Shown here: piece by piece, positions 11,670 to 61,164 of the stretch | How the letters are laid out: each line of letters opens with the position of its first letter | How positions within the stretch are numbered: the stretch's first letter is position 1 | Assembly: GCA_028704635.1 (NCBI GenBank) | Contig: JAQWFB010000002.1 | Span: forward strand, 693 to 64,692 | Direction: 5' to 3' | DNA: 64,000 nt | DNA from: Candidatus Shapirobacteria bacterium | GTDB taxonomy: Bacteria; Patescibacteriota; Microgenomatia; UBA12405 | Translations under genes and position numbers: made by a program | Notes under the pieces: generated by a model | What the model saw: the letters and a program-made list of their open reading frames with translations, nothing else | Databases searched by the model: none | What the model was told of the DNA's origin: nothing

Positions 11670-13688
11670 ATGAAGTCCCTTACTAAGCCAATCCATTTTT
11701 TGTTTTTGGCTCTTGTTTTTTTTACTCCTTTTATTTTCACCCAATCAAATTCTGAGCTTTTTGAATTACCAAAAATGTATTTCGTTTATCTTTTAACCAC
11801 TTTAATAACTACCTTTCATTTAATTAATGTTATCCAAAAAAAAGCTCCTTTTCGCAAAAAAACCTTTTTAGATATTCCCATTCTTCTCTTTTTTATTTCC
11901 CAAGTAATTTCCACTTATTATTCCATTGACCCCCATACTTCTTTTTTCGGTTACTACTCTCGTCTTAATGGCGGTCTTTTATCATTGATTTGTTATCTTC
12001 TTCTCTATTTTATTTTATCCGTTTATATTGACTCAGATTTTAAAAATAAAATTATTAATTTTTCCCTACTTTCGGCATTTTTAGTTTCAATTTATGCCAT
12101 TGCCGAACATTTTGGTATTGATAAAAATTTATGGGTTCAAGACGTCCAATCACGAGTTTTTTCCACTCTTGGTCAACCAAATTGGCTCGCCGCTTATCTT
12201 TGTATTTTTATTCCCTTTTCTATTTTCAAATTTTTTGAATCAATTAAAATTGATTTTGATAAATCCAACAAATTGTACGGGCGAATCATGATTCGCCCCT
12301 ACCTATATTTAATATTAACTTTAATATTTTACATTTCTCTTCTTTTTACTAAATCCAAATCCGGTATCATCGCCTGCCTCATTTCTCTGGCTATTTATTT
12401 TGCAGTTTCTTTTTTTAAAAACAAACCCTTCAGGAAATTATTAATTCTTAATTATTCATTATTAATTATTCTTTCACTTTTAATCACCAATCCCATTAAA
12501 GATAGTTTTATTTCTTTTATAAAAACCAGACATATCGTACCTATAGTCGTAGAAGATAAAATTCCATCATCAAAAATCTTAATAACTTCTAGTGGTGATA
12601 TCCGCAAAATTGTTTGGACGGGAGCCATTGATCTTTGGAAAAAATTCCCCATTTTTGGCACCGGAGTTGAAACTTTCGCCTATTCCTATTACTGGACCCG
12701 CCCAGTCGAACACAACCTCACTTCTGAATGGGATTATCTCTACAACAAAGCCCACAATGAATATATTAATTATCTCGCCACCACCGGCACAGTCGGCTTT
12801 ACTACCTATTGCTTTTTCATCATCTCCGTTTTATTTTTCTCATTAAAGTCTCCCTTGTCAAAGGGAAATTTAGAGGGATTGAATTTAGTCGTCCTGGCCA
12901 GCTTTTCCAGCATATTAATAACTAATTTTGCCGGTTTTTCAGTTGTTACCACTTCGCTCTTCTTCTTTCTTCTCCCCACCCTTTTAAATCCAGATCAGGA
13001 AATTAAAGTAGAGACGTTGCATACAACGTCTCTACGTAAATTTTTAGTTATCCCAATAATTATCATCAGTTTATTCCTAATTAAAAAAACAATTTTCTTT
13101 TACATCGCCGACATCGCCTACAATCAATCCGAAAAATACGATTCTCAAAATGATTATCAAACTGCTCTTTCTTTCGCTCAAACTAGCCATCAACTAAATC
13201 CAAGCGAACCGCTCTACATTGACAAATTAGCCACTATTTACTCAAAAATTGCTCTAAACACCGGCAAACAAGAATATATCGACCAAGCCATCGATTATTC
13301 CGATCTAACCATAAAAATCTCCCCTGCCAACATTAATTTTTGGAAACAACGCGCCCAAGATTATCTTTACCTCTCCGGCATTGATACTAAATATTTCTCT
13401 GTTTCTATCACCGCTCTAACCAACGCCGCCAGTCTCGCTCCCACTGATCCTAAAATTTTCTATTCCCTTGGCCAATTTTTAGAAACAGCCAGTCTTACAG
13501 ACCAAGCCATTCCTTATTACCAAAAAGCCATTGAATTAAAATCAAATTATGATTATGCCTATTTCGCTCTCGGCAAAATTTATCTTTCCAAAAAAGAAAA
13601 AGCGTTAGCCAAAGAAAATCTCCAAAAAACCATTGATTATTCCTATCCCACCAACACTGAAGCAGAAAAATTACTGAAAAGTCTTTAA
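11670..13688 (+). CDS. O-antigen ligase (Wzy_C) family polytopic membrane protein fused to C-terminal TPR repeats. Contains three in-frame short repeat insertions
   Basis: Multiple TM helices, NEYINYLATTG-type Wzy_C loop. C-terminal TPR-like (AIPYYQKAIELKSNYDYAYFALGKIY). Confidence 0.75.
   Translation: MKSLTKPIHFLFLALVFFTPFIFTQSNSELFELPKMYFVYLLTTLITTFHLINVIQKKAPFRKKTFLDIPILLFFISQVISTYYSIDPHTSFFGYYSRLNGGLLSLICYLLLYFILSVYIDSDFKNKIINFSLLSAFLVSIYAIAEHFGIDKNLWVQDVQSRVFSTLGQPNWLAAYLCIFIPFSIFKFFESIKIDFDKSNKLYGRIMIRPYLYLILTLIFYISLLFTKSKSGIIACLISLAIYFAVSFFKNKPFRKLLILNYSLLIILSLLITNPIKDSFISFIKTRHIVPIVVEDKIPSSKILITSSGDIRKIVWTGAIDLWKKFPIFGTGVETFAYSYYWTRPVEHNLTSEWDYLYNKAHNEYINYLATTGTVGFTTYCFFIISVLFFSLKSPLSKGNLEGLNLVVLASFSSILITNFAGFSVVTTSLFFFLLPTLLNPDQEIKVETLHTTSLRKFLVIPIIIISLFLIKKTIFFYIADIAYNQSEKYDSQNDYQTALSFAQTSHQLNPSEPLYIDKLATIYSKIALNTGKQEYIDQAIDYSDLTIKISPANINFWKQRAQDYLYLSGIDTKYFSVSITALTNAASLAPTDPKIFYSLGQFLETASLTDQAIPYYQKAIELKSNYDYAYFALGKIYLSKKEKALAKENLQKTIDYSYPTNTEAEKLLKSL
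12275..12303 (-). repeat. REP-like GC-rich palindrome copy (ggtaggggcgaatcatgattcgcccgtac), inserted in-frame in the ligase gene (encodes YGRIMIRPY)
   Basis: Identical core to 59094-59117 and near-identical to 59011-59035 and 23783-23808. Confidence 0.8.
12847..12880 (+). repeat. Short repeat agtctcccttgtcaaaggga..agagggatt, in-frame inside ligase gene. Second copy at 48531-48589
   Basis: 20/20 identical core plus shared agagggatt tail seen directly. Confidence 0.7.
13008..13035 (+). repeat. Palindrome gtagagacgttg-cata-caacgtctctac in-frame inside ligase gene (encodes KVETLHTTSLR). Related copy at 37540-37569
   Basis: 12-bp perfect inverted arms. Shares 11-nt arm with 37540 copy. Confidence 0.75.
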
Positions 13689-23782: not shown

Positions 23783-23808
23783 TGTAGGGGCGGACCATGT
23801 GTCCGCCC
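23783..23808 (+). repeat. REP-family variant palindrome tgtaggggcggaccatgtgtccgccc plus T-run, acting as rpmG terminator
   Basis: Shares tgtaggggcg...catg...cgccc frame with copies at 12275, 59011, 59094. Confidence 0.65.
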
Positions 23809-37539: not shown

Positions 37540-37569
37540 TGTAGAGACGTTCTGCAGAACGTCTCTACA
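37540..37569. repeat. Perfect palindrome tgtagagacgttc-tgca-gaacgtctctaca. Same family as 13008-13035
   Basis: 13-bp perfect arms. Shared gtagagacgtt core. Confidence 0.75.
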
Positions 37570-57615: not shown

Positions 57616-57805
57616 AATTTAACAGACCTTTGGCCTCGGCTATTGATATTTTTATCAAAACCGAGGCTTTTTTTATTAAAAAATGACAAATTTTAGTTAA
57701 ACGACAAATTTATCTTTTTATCTGTTATAATAACCCCATCAACCGAAGACAGCCGGCACTCAAATAAGTCCAGCCGAGGCAAAACAATTTATTTGTTTTA
57801 ATTGC

Positions 57806-57835
57806 GCCTCGATCTTCGAGGCCCTTTTTATTTAA
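57806..57835 (+). promoter_or_regulatory. rplJ leader hairpin (gcgcctcgatcttcgaggccc-T5), likely L10 autoregulatory/attenuator element
   Basis: GC-rich hairpin and T-run immediately upstream of rplJ start. Confidence 0.45.
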
Positions 57836-57849
57836 AAATACAAAACAAT

Positions 57850-58362
57850 ATGCCAACTACACAAAAAATCAACCAAGTTGAAGAAGTTGCTAAAAAAATT
57901 AGCGAAGCTAAGTCTGCTGCTTTGGTTCAGTATCAAGGCTTAAATGCTGCTGACACCACCGATCTTAGAGCTAGCATTAAAAATGTCGGCGGTTCAATTG
58001 AAGTTGTCAAAAATTCACTTATTACTCGAGCCCTCGAAAAATTAGGTATCAAATTACCAGAAGAGTTAACCGGTCCAACTGCCATTGCCTACTGTAATGA
58101 AGATGAAATTGCTCCTCTAAAAGAAATTGACAAAGTCAACAGTGCTAAAGATAAAACCAGTTTCAAATATGGCATCTACAATAAAAAACTTTTGTCTCTC
58201 GATGAATTAAAAACTTTTTTAAGTTTACCTTCAAAAAGCACTCTTATTTCTCAATTCGTTGGTGGCCTTGCCAACCCTCTTCAGAGATTAGCTTATGCTC
58301 TTCGTTTTAACCAAACTCAATTGGTTTTAACCCTTAAAGCCTTGTCTGAAAAACAAAAATAA
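57850..58362 (+). CDS. rplJ: 50S ribosomal protein L10 (start at MPTTQK)
   Basis: L10 sequence. Upstream in-frame extension would cover leader hairpin. Confidence 0.85.
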   Translation: MPTTQKINQVEEVAKKISEAKSAALVQYQGLNAADTTDLRASIKNVGGSIEVVKNSLITRALEKLGIKLPEELTGPTAIAYCNEDEIAPLKEIDKVNSAKDKTSFKYGIYNKKLLSLDELKTFLSLPSKSTLISQFVGGLANPLQRLAYALRFNQTQLVLTLKALSEKQK

Positions 58363-58398
58363 AAAAATTATTAATTATTAATTAAAAATTAAAAAAAT

Positions 58399-58797
58399 AT
58401 GTCAGAAGAAAAAAAAGTAAGCGCAAAAATTGAAAAAATAATCGATTCTGTTGCTGAATTAACCGTTATTGAGCTTTCCGAATTAGTTAAAGCTCTTGAA
58501 GAAAAATTTGATGTCAAAGCTGTTGCCGCTGCTGCTCCTGTAGCTGCTGCTGGTGCTGCCGCTGCTGCTCCTGTAGCTGAAGAGAAAAACGAATTTGATG
58601 TCGTTATCACTTCTGCTGGCGCTAACAAAATTGCCGTCATCAAAGCTGTTAGAGAATTTAAACCAGAACTTGGCCTTAAAGAAGCTAAAGACATGGTCGA
58701 TGCTTGTCCAGCCAACCTTGGTACTATGAAAAAAGATGCTGCTAATGATGCTAAAGCAAAATTAGAAGCCGCTGGTGCTCAAGTTGAATTAAAATAA
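58399..58797 (+). CDS. rplL: 50S ribosomal protein L7/L12
   Basis: Ala-rich hinge and C-terminal domain [11 protein letters not shown]...LKEAKDMV. Confidence 0.9.
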
Positions 58798-58819
58798 TTC
58801 TTTTATTTTAAAACATTTA

Positions 58820-58847
58820 AAATCCCCCTTTTTAGGGGGATTTTTTA
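58820..58847 (+). terminator. Intrinsic terminator atccccc-ttttt-aggggga-T6
   Basis: 7-bp stem, T-run. Confidence 0.75.
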
Positions 58848-59010
58848 TTGTAACTAATCGGATTATCTCTAATATATTTTCTGACCATTAAATATTCTTT
58901 TTCATTGCGAATAATTCGTTCGTAATAATTTCGTTGCCATAATTTAATTCCAATTTCTTTTGATGTGTTCATTTTAAAATACCCAATAATATTTGATAAT
59001 AATGACCTGT

Positions 59011-59035
59011 GTAGGGGCGATTCATGAATCGCCCC
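59011..59035 (+). repeat. REP-like palindrome gtaggggcgattcatgaatcgcccc (inside transposase remnant)
   Basis: Perfect 11-bp arms. Confidence 0.8.
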
Positions 59036-59093
59036 ATTTAAAACATCGACATCATTAATATTAATTTCATTATTTATTTTTTCATTCATTTTG

Positions 59094-59117
59094 GGCGAAT
59101 CATGATTCGCCCCTACA
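59094..59117 (-). repeat. REP-like palindrome gtaggggcgaatcatgattcgccc in inverted orientation to 59011 copy (REP doublet)
   Basis: Identical to 12275-12303 copy. Confidence 0.8.
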
Positions 59118-59382
59118 ATTTTAATGATCATATGCAAATGGTCTGGCATAATTTGATAACCATCGATTTTAACGTCAAAACGATTTATTAAATTTAATAA
59201 CCAAATTTTACATACCAACCATTTTTATTTAAATCCATTTTTCCATTTTCAATTTCCCCAAATATTTCATTTCGATTTTGCACACAAATCGTTACAAAAT
59301 AATATCCATTTTTTGAATAATCAAACCCATCCAATCTAATCGATATTCTGTGATATTTCACACATTAATGATATCAAAAAAT

Positions 59383-59862
59383 TTATAACTTTTCTAAAAA
59401 ATCACCCCAACCGATCTTCGTATAAGTTTCTTTACATTCCTTTTCTAAAACTCCACCCACCACTTCTGGTTCATCACTAAAAAAAGGCTTAATTTTAGAA
59501 AGCCCTTTATCTTGCAAAATATTCCATTTGCTTTTACCACCCATATTAGGCGATCTAACCCCAAAAACCACTTTTTTGAAATGCAATTCTCTCATCATAA
59601 AAGAACACATCGGACAAGGTTCACAGTTTGAATAAATTTCACAATCCTTTAAATCTTTACTTTTAAGTTTCTTTTGGGCTTTTCTCATTGCCATTATTTC
59701 TGCATGACTGGTAACATCACATTTTTTTTCATTAGCATTAGTCACCTTAACAATTATTTTTCCATTTTTAACAATCAAACTTCCAAAAGGTGCTTCGCCT
59801 TTTTTAACTGACTGTTCAGCCAATTCTATACATTTTTTGATATAAAACTCATTATTTTTCAT
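59383..59862 (-). CDS. tadA: tRNA-specific adenosine deaminase / CDA-fold nucleoside deaminase
   Basis: HAEIMAMRKA and CEPCPMCSFMM zinc motifs. Confidence 0.7.
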   Translation of the reverse strand: MKNNEFYIKKCIELAEQSVKKGEAPFGSLIVKNGKIIVKVTNANEKKCDVTSHAEIMAMRKAQKKLKSKDLKDCEIYSNCEPCPMCSFMMRELHFKKVVFGVRSPNMGGKSKWNILQDKGLSKIKPFFSDEPEVVGGVLEKECKETYTKIGWGDFLEKL

Positions 59863-59890
59863 TTAGTATATTTTACCTCCAACACCAACA

Positions 59891-59920
59891 AAAAGCCCTC
59901 CGAAATTTCAGAGGGCTTTT
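59891..59920 (-). terminator. Intrinsic terminator agccctc-cgaaatttca-gagggct (serves minus-strand small gene)
   Basis: 7-bp stem. T/A runs both sides. Confidence 0.55.
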
Positions 59921-59935
59921 AAGTTCTCAAATTTT

Positions 59936-60031
59936 TTATTTACAGCCGCAACCACAGCTAGGACCACAGCCACAACTACTCTTTTTAACAGCCTTTTTAA
60001 CGGGCTTCTTAACAGGTTTTTTTACGGGCAT
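59936..60031 (-). CDS. Tiny protein MPVKKPVKKPVKKAVKKSSCGCGPSCGCGCK (31 aa): Lys-rich N-terminus plus Cys-Gly tail. Paralog of 15268-15375
   Basis: First 6 codons nearly identical to the other MPVKKP gene. Followed by terminator. No clear SD. Confidence 0.4.
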   Translation of the reverse strand: MPVKKPVKKPVKKAVKKSSCGCGPSCGCGCK

Positions 60032-60108
60032 ATTTTTTTAAATTAATAATCTAATTTAATCTAACCACCAAAACTAACTCTCGTCAATAGTGTTATTTCT
60101 AACAAATA

Positions 60109-61164
60109 TTATACTAACTCGTTTCTATTTTCTGCCTTCAAAGTATCCACTACCTCTCCCACTCTCCCACTATTCTCTTTTTTCATAATTAATAAAGCAT
60201 CCCCAGTATCCACTACCACTAAATTTTCCACTCCTATTAAGGCTACATATTTCTTATCTTTTCTATAAACAAAATTTTGGTTACTATCCAATTCTAAAAC
60301 ATCCTCTGGTTGGTAGGTTCCTTTTTCCTTCATATAATTAGCCACCGATTCCCATGTTCCAAAATCAACCCAATTAAAGGGTAATTCTACTACTAACGCC
60401 TCACCATTTTTATAAACTAATTTAGTCACCTCTTCTATTCCTGCCTTTGGCATTTTGCCATATTCACTCACCACATCACCATTATTGGCAATCGCCACCA
60501 ATGGTTCATACCACTCTGGTTTATATTTTTGATACATCTTCAATAAATTATTTGGTGTCATCGAAGTATGATTAGCGTGCAACAATAATTTATCTGTTCC
60601 TAAATATTGTTTAATTTTTTCTTCTTCAGTTCTATCAATATAATCAGCCACTTCAAAAATTCTCACTCCACTTTCTTCACTTACCAAATTTCCCTTAACC
60701 AAATAATCCACCCCTCTTACAATCGACTGTGGCACAAATCCCCCGGTAATATATTTATCATTAATTCGACCCAATTTTTCCTGTTCCCCAATCATATCTA
60801 AAAACTTTTCATCCGGTTCTCTTAAAACATCCGCTTGAACCAAAATAAAAGGCTCATCTCCAAATCCTCTTTTAATTAATTGTGCCGCCGCAAAACCAGT
60901 TGCCGGACCTTGATTTCTCATTTCTGGTTCCACAAAAATATTTTCATCAATAATTTCTGGAATTAAATTTTTAGCGATTTTAGCCTGTACTTCATTAGTT
61001 TGTAAAAATATTTCCTCTGGGCCAAATTTCTTTCTTAAAGCCTCATAATTCAATTGAAATAAAGATTTACCATTAATCAGTGGTAAAAAGTGTTTAGGCA
61101 TCGCATTTCGACTCATTGGCCACATTTTTGAGCCAACACCACCACAAATAATTACAGTTTTCAT
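60109..61164 (-). CDS. Mannose-1-phosphate guanylyltransferase (sugar nucleotidyltransferase)
   Basis: VIICGGVGSKMWPMSRNAMPKHFLPL N-terminus. Confidence 0.75.
   Translation of the reverse strand: MKTVIICGGVGSKMWPMSRNAMPKHFLPLINGKSLFQLNYEALRKKFGPEEIFLQTNEVQAKIAKNLIPEIIDENIFVEPEMRNQGPATGFAAAQLIKRGFGDEPFILVQADVLREPDEKFLDMIGEQEKLGRINDKYITGGFVPQSIVRGVDYLVKGNLVSEESGVRIFEVADYIDRTEEEKIKQYLGTDKLLLHANHTSMTPNNLLKMYQKYKPEWYEPLVAIANNGDVVSEYGKMPKAGIEEVTKLVYKNGEALVVELPFNWVDFGTWESVANYMKEKGTYQPEDVLELDSNQNFVYRKDKKYVALIGVENLVVVDTGDALLIMKKENSGRVGEVVDTLKAENRNELV

Follow-up and report, generated by a model that had tools for sequence, protein, structure and literature searches.

It is established that E. coli TnpAREP binds GC-rich hairpins that carry a GTAG foot on their 5' side, and that it cuts next to them. 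According to the structure paper (4ER8), the active site of this enzyme comprises H59/H61, Y115, and N119. Four further residues of E. coli TnpAREP, W94, Q95, E100, and R104, contact the GTAG foot. A second described group, TnpA-Y1 subclass 2.4, is equivalent to RAYT group 4 of Bertels et al. 2017 (Quentin, Siguier, Chandler and Fichant 2018, BMC Genomics 19:475, PMC6006769). The hallmark of this subclass is the presence of in-frame REPs between the HUH motif and the Tyr; the corresponding beta3-alphaC insert is highly variable and the loop was modelled as peripheral and away from the active site (Quentin 2018, PMC6006769). The REPs of subclass 2.4 are long or of the 'double foot' type (a GT[AG]G on the 5' side and the complementary foot on the 3' side), with three G-C pairs closing the base of the stem. 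Its proteins share the motifs NH[IFV]H, WQ, and YIxNNP, have no tail domain, and measure 194 aa in the median (Table 1), with a median HuH-to-Y spacing of 88 aa (Quentin 2018, PMC6006769). Table S1 of the same study includes GTAGGGGCAATTCATGAATTGCCCCTAC (ABB27827.1) as a subclass 2.4 REP, and GTAGAGACGTTGCATGCAACGTCTCTAC (ACK69880.1) is also in the list (Quentin 2018, PMC6006769). Finally, intragenic REPs and Rickettsia palindromic elements are known to code for 10-30 extra residues (Di Nocera et al. 2013). The possibility that the locus reported here represents a new, undescribed architecture was considered and rejected, since the family-wide in-frame REP pattern, examined here in 81 genes, is already published (Quentin 2018, PMC6006769). 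The supplements of that study make no mention of the species of the loci examined here.

We analyzed a 64-kb stretch of DNA (the window) from a metagenome-assembled genome of Candidatus Shapirobacteria, whose proteins P0121 and P0241 show 100% identity to proteins of the window. Two overlapping minus-strand ORFs of the window encode one RAYT-like HUH/Tyr enzyme in two different frames. This locus is very probably a RAYT of TnpA-Y1 subclass 2.4 (Bertels group 4) that carries its own in-frame REPs, which are older than the damage, and whose frame has been split by one deleted T. The gene (58832-59361, minus strand) begins with a GTG codon and encodes 176 aa once frame-corrected. Its N-terminal ORF (59194-59361, minus; 55 aa) contains GYYFVTICVQNRNEIFGEIENGKMDLNKNGWYV and encodes MKYHRISIRLDGFDYSKNGYYFVTICVQNRNEIFGEIENGKMDLNKNGWYVKFGY, and its C-terminal ORF (58832-59218, minus; 128 aa) carries IMPDHLHMII, KLWQRNYYERII, and RKYIRDNP. 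A frameshift had been recognized in the sequence-only reading, and we could trace its cause to one missing T at positions 59217-59218 of the minus strand, where the window presents TT and the intact orthologues of loci L001 and L002 present TTT (AATGG-TTGG in the window versus AATGGTTTGG in both orthologues). This 1-nt deletion is the sole lesion in the gene. Using the frame-corrected protein as a query, we found P0001 (94% identical over its full length, 176 aa) and P0002 (74% identical, 191 aa), whose genes in L001 and L002, respectively, are uninterrupted, lie on long contigs, and occupy the same place as the window RAYT. Programmed frameshifting was also considered and dismissed: the site reads AAT GGT TGG, without a slippery heptamer, and the orthologues stay in a single frame.

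The window RAYT differs from its L001 orthologue by three synonymous and nine non-synonymous changes. Relative to L002, its dN/dS is 0.18, which is equal to the value of rplL in the same comparison, and the gene has therefore been under purifying selection until very recently. From the alignment, the deleted T would reflect either a recent inactivation or a consensus error, and we suggest that the annotation should call this gene a RAYT with a possible frameshift rather than an IS200 remnant. The dS of the RAYT between the window and L001 (0.03) is lower than that of its neighbours rplL (0.15) and the deaminase gene (0.09), and five of the nine amino-acid differences are found at the C-terminus, where L001 agrees with the divergent allele of L205 (described below). 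The low dS and the clustered C-terminal changes may result from recombination between alleles.

The assignment of the gene to the RAYT-type Y1 HUH enzymes, which had been proposed from the letters of the window, is upheld by profile searches, although the similarity is weak. Pfam PF01797 scored 30.5 bits on the frame-corrected protein (cut-off 23) and 23.9 bits on P0001, with an alignment near threshold that covers profile positions 4-59 only, i.e., the N-terminal half. The NCBIfam profile REP_Tyr_transpos (NF047646) scored 57.7 bits on the frame-corrected protein, and 58.9 bits when the doublet was collapsed to one REP, both under the cut-off of 80; the IS200/IS605 profile NF033573 reached 19.2 bits against a cut-off of 55. 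The HUH motif and the catalytic Tyr, with the RAYT-specific motifs, are present by alignment to 4ER8, for which the family profile was aligned to E. coli TnpAREP over WQ...YIxxNP. The HUH motif H75-L76-H77 of PDHLHMII (59132-59140, minus) aligned with H59/H61; it reads DHLH in the window and NHLH in P0001, relative to a family consensus of PNHxH. The motif WQRNYYERIIR (58907-58939, minus) provides W142, Q143, E148, and R152, the equivalents of W94, Q95, E100, and R104. Within the Y motif YIRDNP (58859-58876, minus), Y163 (58874-58876) is the predicted catalytic Tyr and N167 the putative metal ligand, because they aligned to Y115 and N119 of E. coli TnpAREP. The sequence-only reading had placed the catalytic Tyr in WQRNYY, which instead belongs to the motif through which the E. 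coli enzyme touches the GTAG foot (by its W, Q, E, and R); the candidate catalytic residue is Y163 of RKYIRDNP. Q143 is invariant and W142 nearly invariant in both alignments A1 and A3; no variation was seen at Y163 and N167, and P168 is fully conserved in A1 and almost fully in A3. H77 and Y163 are separated by 86 aa, and 13 residues follow Y163. We also observed that the window lineage presents two changes at conserved residues, R6I and D67G.

Both GC-rich palindromes of the gene are located within the second ORF, between the HUH motif and the next helix. REP 1 (59093-59117, minus) has its GTAG foot on the coding strand at 59116-59113, followed by the perfect palindrome GGGCGAATCATGATTCGCCC (59112-59093), and encodes VGANHDSP. 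REP 2 (59010-59035, plus) has its GTAG foot at 59011-59014 and the perfect palindrome GGGGCGATTCATGAATCGCCCC at 59014-59035, and the minus strand reads GAIHESPL. The AT-rich spacer between them (59036-59092, minus) encodes KMNEKINNEININDVDVLN; in L002 it has 27 additional nt. The two REPs are in inverted orientation, with one GTAG foot on each strand and both feet directed outward. Together with their flanks, the palindromes form 25-nt inverted arms (59010-59034 and 59093-59117; TGTAGGGGCGATTCATGAATCGCCC and its near-complement) that are 92% complementary and 58 nt apart. When read as direct repeats, the REP starts are 78 nt apart, which corresponds to 26 codons. Two perfect, inverted, GC-rich palindromes had already been recognized at positions that are right within a base or two, and an in-frame insertion between the HUH motif and the Tyr had been correctly reported, except that its length is 26 codons and not 27. 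The designation as a REP doublet was likewise justified, as the palindromes are GTAG-footed and another copy exists in the window (12275-12302).

The REP pattern matched three times in the window (~33% GC) and in none of 100 shuffles. Folding of the 122-nt doublet yielded z-scores of -6.1 (DNA) and -6.7 (RNA) relative to shuffles, and in the minimum-energy structure the two REPs pair with each other in a REPIN-like arrangement. The GTAG-footed sequence of REP type A is GGGCGAWTCATGAWTCGCCC. The P0001 gene possesses an identical 26-codon doublet; since this gene is intact, the REPs predate the damage. In the P0002 gene, REP 1 is intact and REP 2 carries two changes within the same architecture, and the REP 1 sequence is identical in the window, L001, and L002. 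Only one reading frame of the REP is stop-free, with a TAG in the second frame and a TGA in the third, and every surviving in-frame copy therefore reads VGA...SPL. A search of the hairpins against Rfam returned no family above noise, and we detected no footed hairpin flanking the RAYT in positions 58000-60400 besides the two internal ones.

The AlphaFold2 model of P0001 has a mean pLDDT of 79.5 with a confident core, and the part with a pLDDT below 50 coincides exactly with the REP-coded residues 86-117, between strand 75-82 and helix 121-137. The REP-coded stretch is thus predicted to be a disordered surface loop, which would explain why the protein tolerates the doublet. In the protein alignment, the segment that separates the HUH strand from the following helix contains one to several palindrome-coded peptides in nearly all homologues (VGANHDSP, VGAIHESPL, RAIRESPL, VGAHHDAP, and VGAGLVPAL). 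We then surveyed 80 family loci from genomes of many phyla and scored 81 family genes; a scan of genome contigs revealed no relative above 43% identity among the matches listed. Under strict criteria (perfect stems of 7 bp or more, immediately next to a GTAG or CTAC foot), a perfect footed hairpin was found in the HUH-WQR segment of 55 of the 81 genes, with both kinds in 35, and was missing in the other 26. The density of footed hairpins was 4.7 per kb in this segment vs 0.11 per kb in the flanks. The usual layout consists of a first hairpin abutting a 5' GTAG right after the HUH strand and a second abutting a 3' CTAC before the helix; alternatively, a single 'double-foot' palindrome GTAGGGGC...GCCCCTAC fills the loop site. 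In 23 of 47 genes, the P of PxHxH is followed after 10 or 13 codons by the start of the GTAG. The number of loop REPs ranges from zero to several across the family, and the sequence of internal stems varies among lineages while their pairing is kept. Internal REPs match the flank REPs in L065, L050, L044, and others. In L065 (9605-16443, a Deferrisomatales MAG), a RAYT of the same family is found amid 29 near-identical REPs (GGGCGACGCATGCGTCGCCC), one of which is inside the gene.

Outside the RAYT, the 64 kb contain only one dispersed copy of the doublet REP. This REP 1 copy (12275-12302, foot on the minus strand) is in frame in a gene of the O-antigen-ligase family and encodes YGRIMIRPY. Many orthologues of this gene are devoid of an insert at this site; others present at the same site different hairpins of the same 20-nt length (GGGCGCGGCGTGACGCGCCC in L203 and GGGCGCGCCACGGCGCGCCC in L204). 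Across the window and L203 and L204 (10583-10609), the hairpin interiors at this site read AATCATGATT, CGGCGTGACG, or CGCCACGGCG, all paired and GC-rich within AT-rich genomes, a pattern suggestive of a hairpin that is rapidly turned over or converted at its site. Concerted evolution of internal and dispersed REPs was also considered and is not supported: the L203 genome can be linked to the RAYT of L205 through a shared rplL protein, and GGGCGCGGCGTGACGCGCCC in L203 does not match GGGACAGGCATGCCTGTCCCC in the L205 RAYT. Beyond these genomes, more than 120 metagenome contigs, with GC contents between 34 and 68%, contain the exact 24-mer GTAGGGGCGAATCATGATTCGCCC. Of 81 sites among the matches listed, just 2 fall within RAYT genes, and many fall within long ORFs. 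The same 20-24-mer is also present away from RAYT genes, both between genes and in other reading frames. These palindromes are real, dispersed REPs. The 24-mer usually occurs once per contig in L083-L162, often in frame as VGANHDSP(L), including in ORFs of 1049 aa (L083) and 444 aa (L104), and this spread is unusually broad for a single REP sequence.

Two other kinds of REPs or REP-like hairpins were observed in the window. A second family, the double-foot REP type C (GTAGAGACGTT-N6-AACGTCTCTAC), is present at 13008-13035, in frame in the same O-antigen-ligase gene (VETLHTTSL), and at 37541-37568, between convergent genes. It is nearly identical to the subclass 2.4 REP of ACK69880.1 (Quentin 2018, PMC6006769), and GTAGAGACGTTGCATGCAACGTCTCTAC matches this second type; no RAYT matching REP type C was found in the 64-kb window. 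REP type B (GGGCGGACCATGTGTCCGCCC, 23784-23808) is a GTAG-footed hairpin with a T run located just past a stop codon; this third REP-like type thus occupies the position of a terminator.

The RAYT is convergent with rplL in the window, L001, and L002. There is one copy in 64 kb, and the gene is syntenic in these three genomes. A bidirectional terminator hairpin (58819-58844, both strands) is common to rplL and the RAYT and holds the last RAYT codons and the stop. Locus L205 (6414-7120) presents a divergent 165-aa RAYT allele at the same spot after rplL; one REP lies inside this allele (GTAG-GGGACAGGCATGCCTGTCCCC), and two further REPs of its type lie immediately upstream. The C-terminus of this allele resembles that of L001, and the L205 RAYT is possibly a mosaic. 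The RAYT is absent after rplL in L206 (6397-6627) and L207 (6400-6453), where the rplL terminator is different. The slot after rplL is thus polymorphic in Shapirobacteria, with a window-type RAYT, a divergent RAYT, or none. It had been proposed that the position of the RAYT directly after rplL marks a rearrangement point; this does not hold, since rpoB follows rplL in none of six related Shapirobacteria loci, including the two without a RAYT (L206 and L207), and the RAYT is therefore not a marker of the rplL-rpoB break. The separation of rplL and rpoB is a lineage trait that is independent of the RAYT. The deaminase gene lies 21 nt upstream of the RAYT, which is probably on a shared transcript with it; a promoter scan found sites no more numerous than in shuffles. 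Two further features of this region were noted. A ribosomal protein L10 leader-like RNA lies upstream of rplJ (57725-57839; RF00557, 43.4 bits for a gathering score of 44), and a 31-aa ORF rich in Lys and Cys-Gly (MPVKKPVKKPVKKAVKKSSCGCGPSCGCGCK; 59936-60031, minus) has counterparts in L001 (9331-9426) and L206 (6458-6553), where a gene of equal length is called at the corresponding position.

Several other explanations of the locus can be envisioned. The sequence-only reading had described a decaying transposase remnant that was invaded by its own REPs during decay at an rplL/rpoB rearrangement breakpoint. The RAYT is indeed out of frame, REPs are known to insert into genes, and the comparison with L001 (three synonymous and nine non-synonymous differences) is consistent with a few extra non-synonymous changes in the window lineage. 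This history is nevertheless very unlikely: a single nucleotide constitutes the only lesion, dN/dS remains at 0.18, the intact P0001 has the same doublet and P0002 the same architecture, the position of the REPs is family-wide and published, and rplL also lacks rpoB after it in L206 and L207, both without a RAYT. Overall, this earlier reading is correct about the anatomy of the locus and misread its history. It is also possible, although we hold it to be somewhat unlikely, that the frameshift arose from a mistake of assembly or consensus calling within a short run of Ts and that the gene is intact and functional in the organism. Such an error would agree with the loss of a single base from a homopolymer (TTT to TT) in the absence of other lesions, with the 94% identity of the remainder to an intact orthologue, and with the origin of the window from a metagenome-assembled genome; however, a 3-nt run is short for homopolymer errors, and the changes R6I and D67G at conserved residues of the window lineage fit relaxed constraint.

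The nature of the internal REPs can also be viewed differently. They might be functional, ancestral, and positionally fixed, acting as a linked master copy or as a hairpin that controls expression via the enzyme or RNases. The recurrent position of the GTAG, 10 or 13 codons past the P of PxHxH in 23/47 genes, is in line with this idea, as are the stems whose sequences vary by lineage with pairing kept, the identity of REP 1 in the window, L001, and L002 despite a dS of 0.6, and the near-identical REPs found in distant phyla over 34-68% GC. If true, a linked master copy or autoregulatory hairpin would travel with the gene on horizontal transfer, and this would explain the presence of nearly the same REP in Shapirobacteria, among the REPs listed for members of other phyla, and in metagenome contigs whose GC ranges from 34 to 68%. 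We regard a functional role as doubtful, however, because a perfect footed hairpin is missing from 26 of the 81 genes, the uninterrupted L002 gene has a degraded REP 2, the loop copy number varies from zero to several, and the genomic REP of L203 at the orthologous site is unlike the internal REP of its RAYT (L205). Moreover, palindromes can keep pairing by templated mutation without selection. Conversely, the palindromes could be a mere by-product of a conserved peptide motif, VGAxHxSP, and not DNA elements. This peptide does recur in many homologues, but such an origin is scarcely credible given that copies of the same 20-24-mer occur away from RAYT genes, where they are read in other frames or lie in intergenic DNA, that the peptides change in step with compensatory stem changes, and that the segment is predicted to be disordered.

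We favor the interpretation of a subclass 2.4 RAYT whose internal REPs predate a single-nucleotide deletion. The RAYT would be a single-copy, chromosomally fixed gene in Candidatus Shapirobacteria and, by homology, its product is predicted to be a single-strand DNA endonuclease (HUH/Tyr) recognizing GTAG-footed hairpins; this putative activity is suggested by the conservation of H75/H77, Y163, N167, and W142/Q143/E148/R152. As is typical of the subclass, REPs of the gene's own type are inserted in frame after strand beta3 (HUH) and before helix alphaC; they form an inverted doublet with feet outward and a 78-nt spacing, read as VGANHDSP...GAIHESPL. The internal doublet most likely persists through its position in a disordered, permissive loop, and its REPs would then be functionless passengers. 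The dispersion of the same REP elsewhere would fit a cognate RAYT-REP pair.

These results extend a published curiosity, RAYT genes with their own in-frame REPs, to a small-genome CPR lineage. The window RAYT is a further example of a known oddity and not a new type of element or mechanism. At a single locus, the Shapirobacteria genomes offer a clean natural series of an intact gene, a frameshifted one, a different allele in its place, and an empty slot, which could be used to ask whether REP families decay after the loss of their RAYT. They also provide a warning for annotation: VGAxHxSP-type peptides and short GC-rich palindromes in genes of AT-rich genomes are REP insertions.

Compared with known systems, the window RAYT shares the Y1 HUH fold and a Pfam PF01797 match with IS200/IS605 TnpA but, unlike these elements, it has YIRDNP in place of a Y---Q motif and no tnpB, subterminal hairpins bounding a mobile unit, or multiple identical copies, and it occupies a fixed chromosomal locus. 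E. coli TnpAREP (YafM; PDB 4ER8; subclass 2.2/RAYT group 2) also presents the HUH motif, the catalytic Tyr, the Asn metal ligand, the W/Q/E/R foot-contacting residues, and REPs with a 5' GTAG foot. In contrast to the window RAYT, its gene is flanked by REP clusters (BIMEs) with none inside, the protein has a C-terminal regulatory extension, and the REP stems are bulged whereas those of the window are perfect palindromes. Relative to the RAYT sensu Nunvar 2010, the inverted REP pair of the window is inside the ORF and not around it. As in intragenic REPs and Rickettsia palindromic elements, the window contains GTAG-tagged hairpins inserted in frame as single or dimer copies, and those at 12275-12302 and 13008-13035 are of the kind described by Di Nocera et al. 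2013, who did not report REPs inside RAYT genes themselves.

The closest resemblance is to subclass 2.4, with several differences. The host belongs to CPR (Candidatus Shapirobacteria), which is unnamed in the taxonomic summary of Quentin 2018, and the window RAYT, unlike most subclass 2.4 genes, has no flanking REPs within 1 kb, although its relatives in L065 and L205 have them. The protein is shorter (176 aa versus a median of 194 aa), its signatures deviate from those published (DHLH versus NH[IFV]H, and YIRDNP versus YIxNNP, with D and not N as the fourth residue), and the window copy is frameshifted, unlike the genes described. In agreement with subclass 2.4, the window RAYT presents HUH, WQ, and YIxxNP motifs, 86 aa between HuH and Y (88 in the published median), a C-terminus without extension, and a variable beta3-alphaC insert built of in-frame REPs between H77 and helix 121-137. 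Its REP is of the GTAG-footed/double-foot type with G-C pairs at the stem base, GTAG-GGGCG...CGCCC(-CTAC), and differs from the listed GTAGGGGCAATTCATGAATTGCCCCTAC by one compensatory pair; the gene would likewise occur in about one copy per genome, with a patchy distribution across phyla. Based on its motifs, spacing, and REPs, we file the window RAYT, with reservations, in TnpA-Y1 subclass 2.4.
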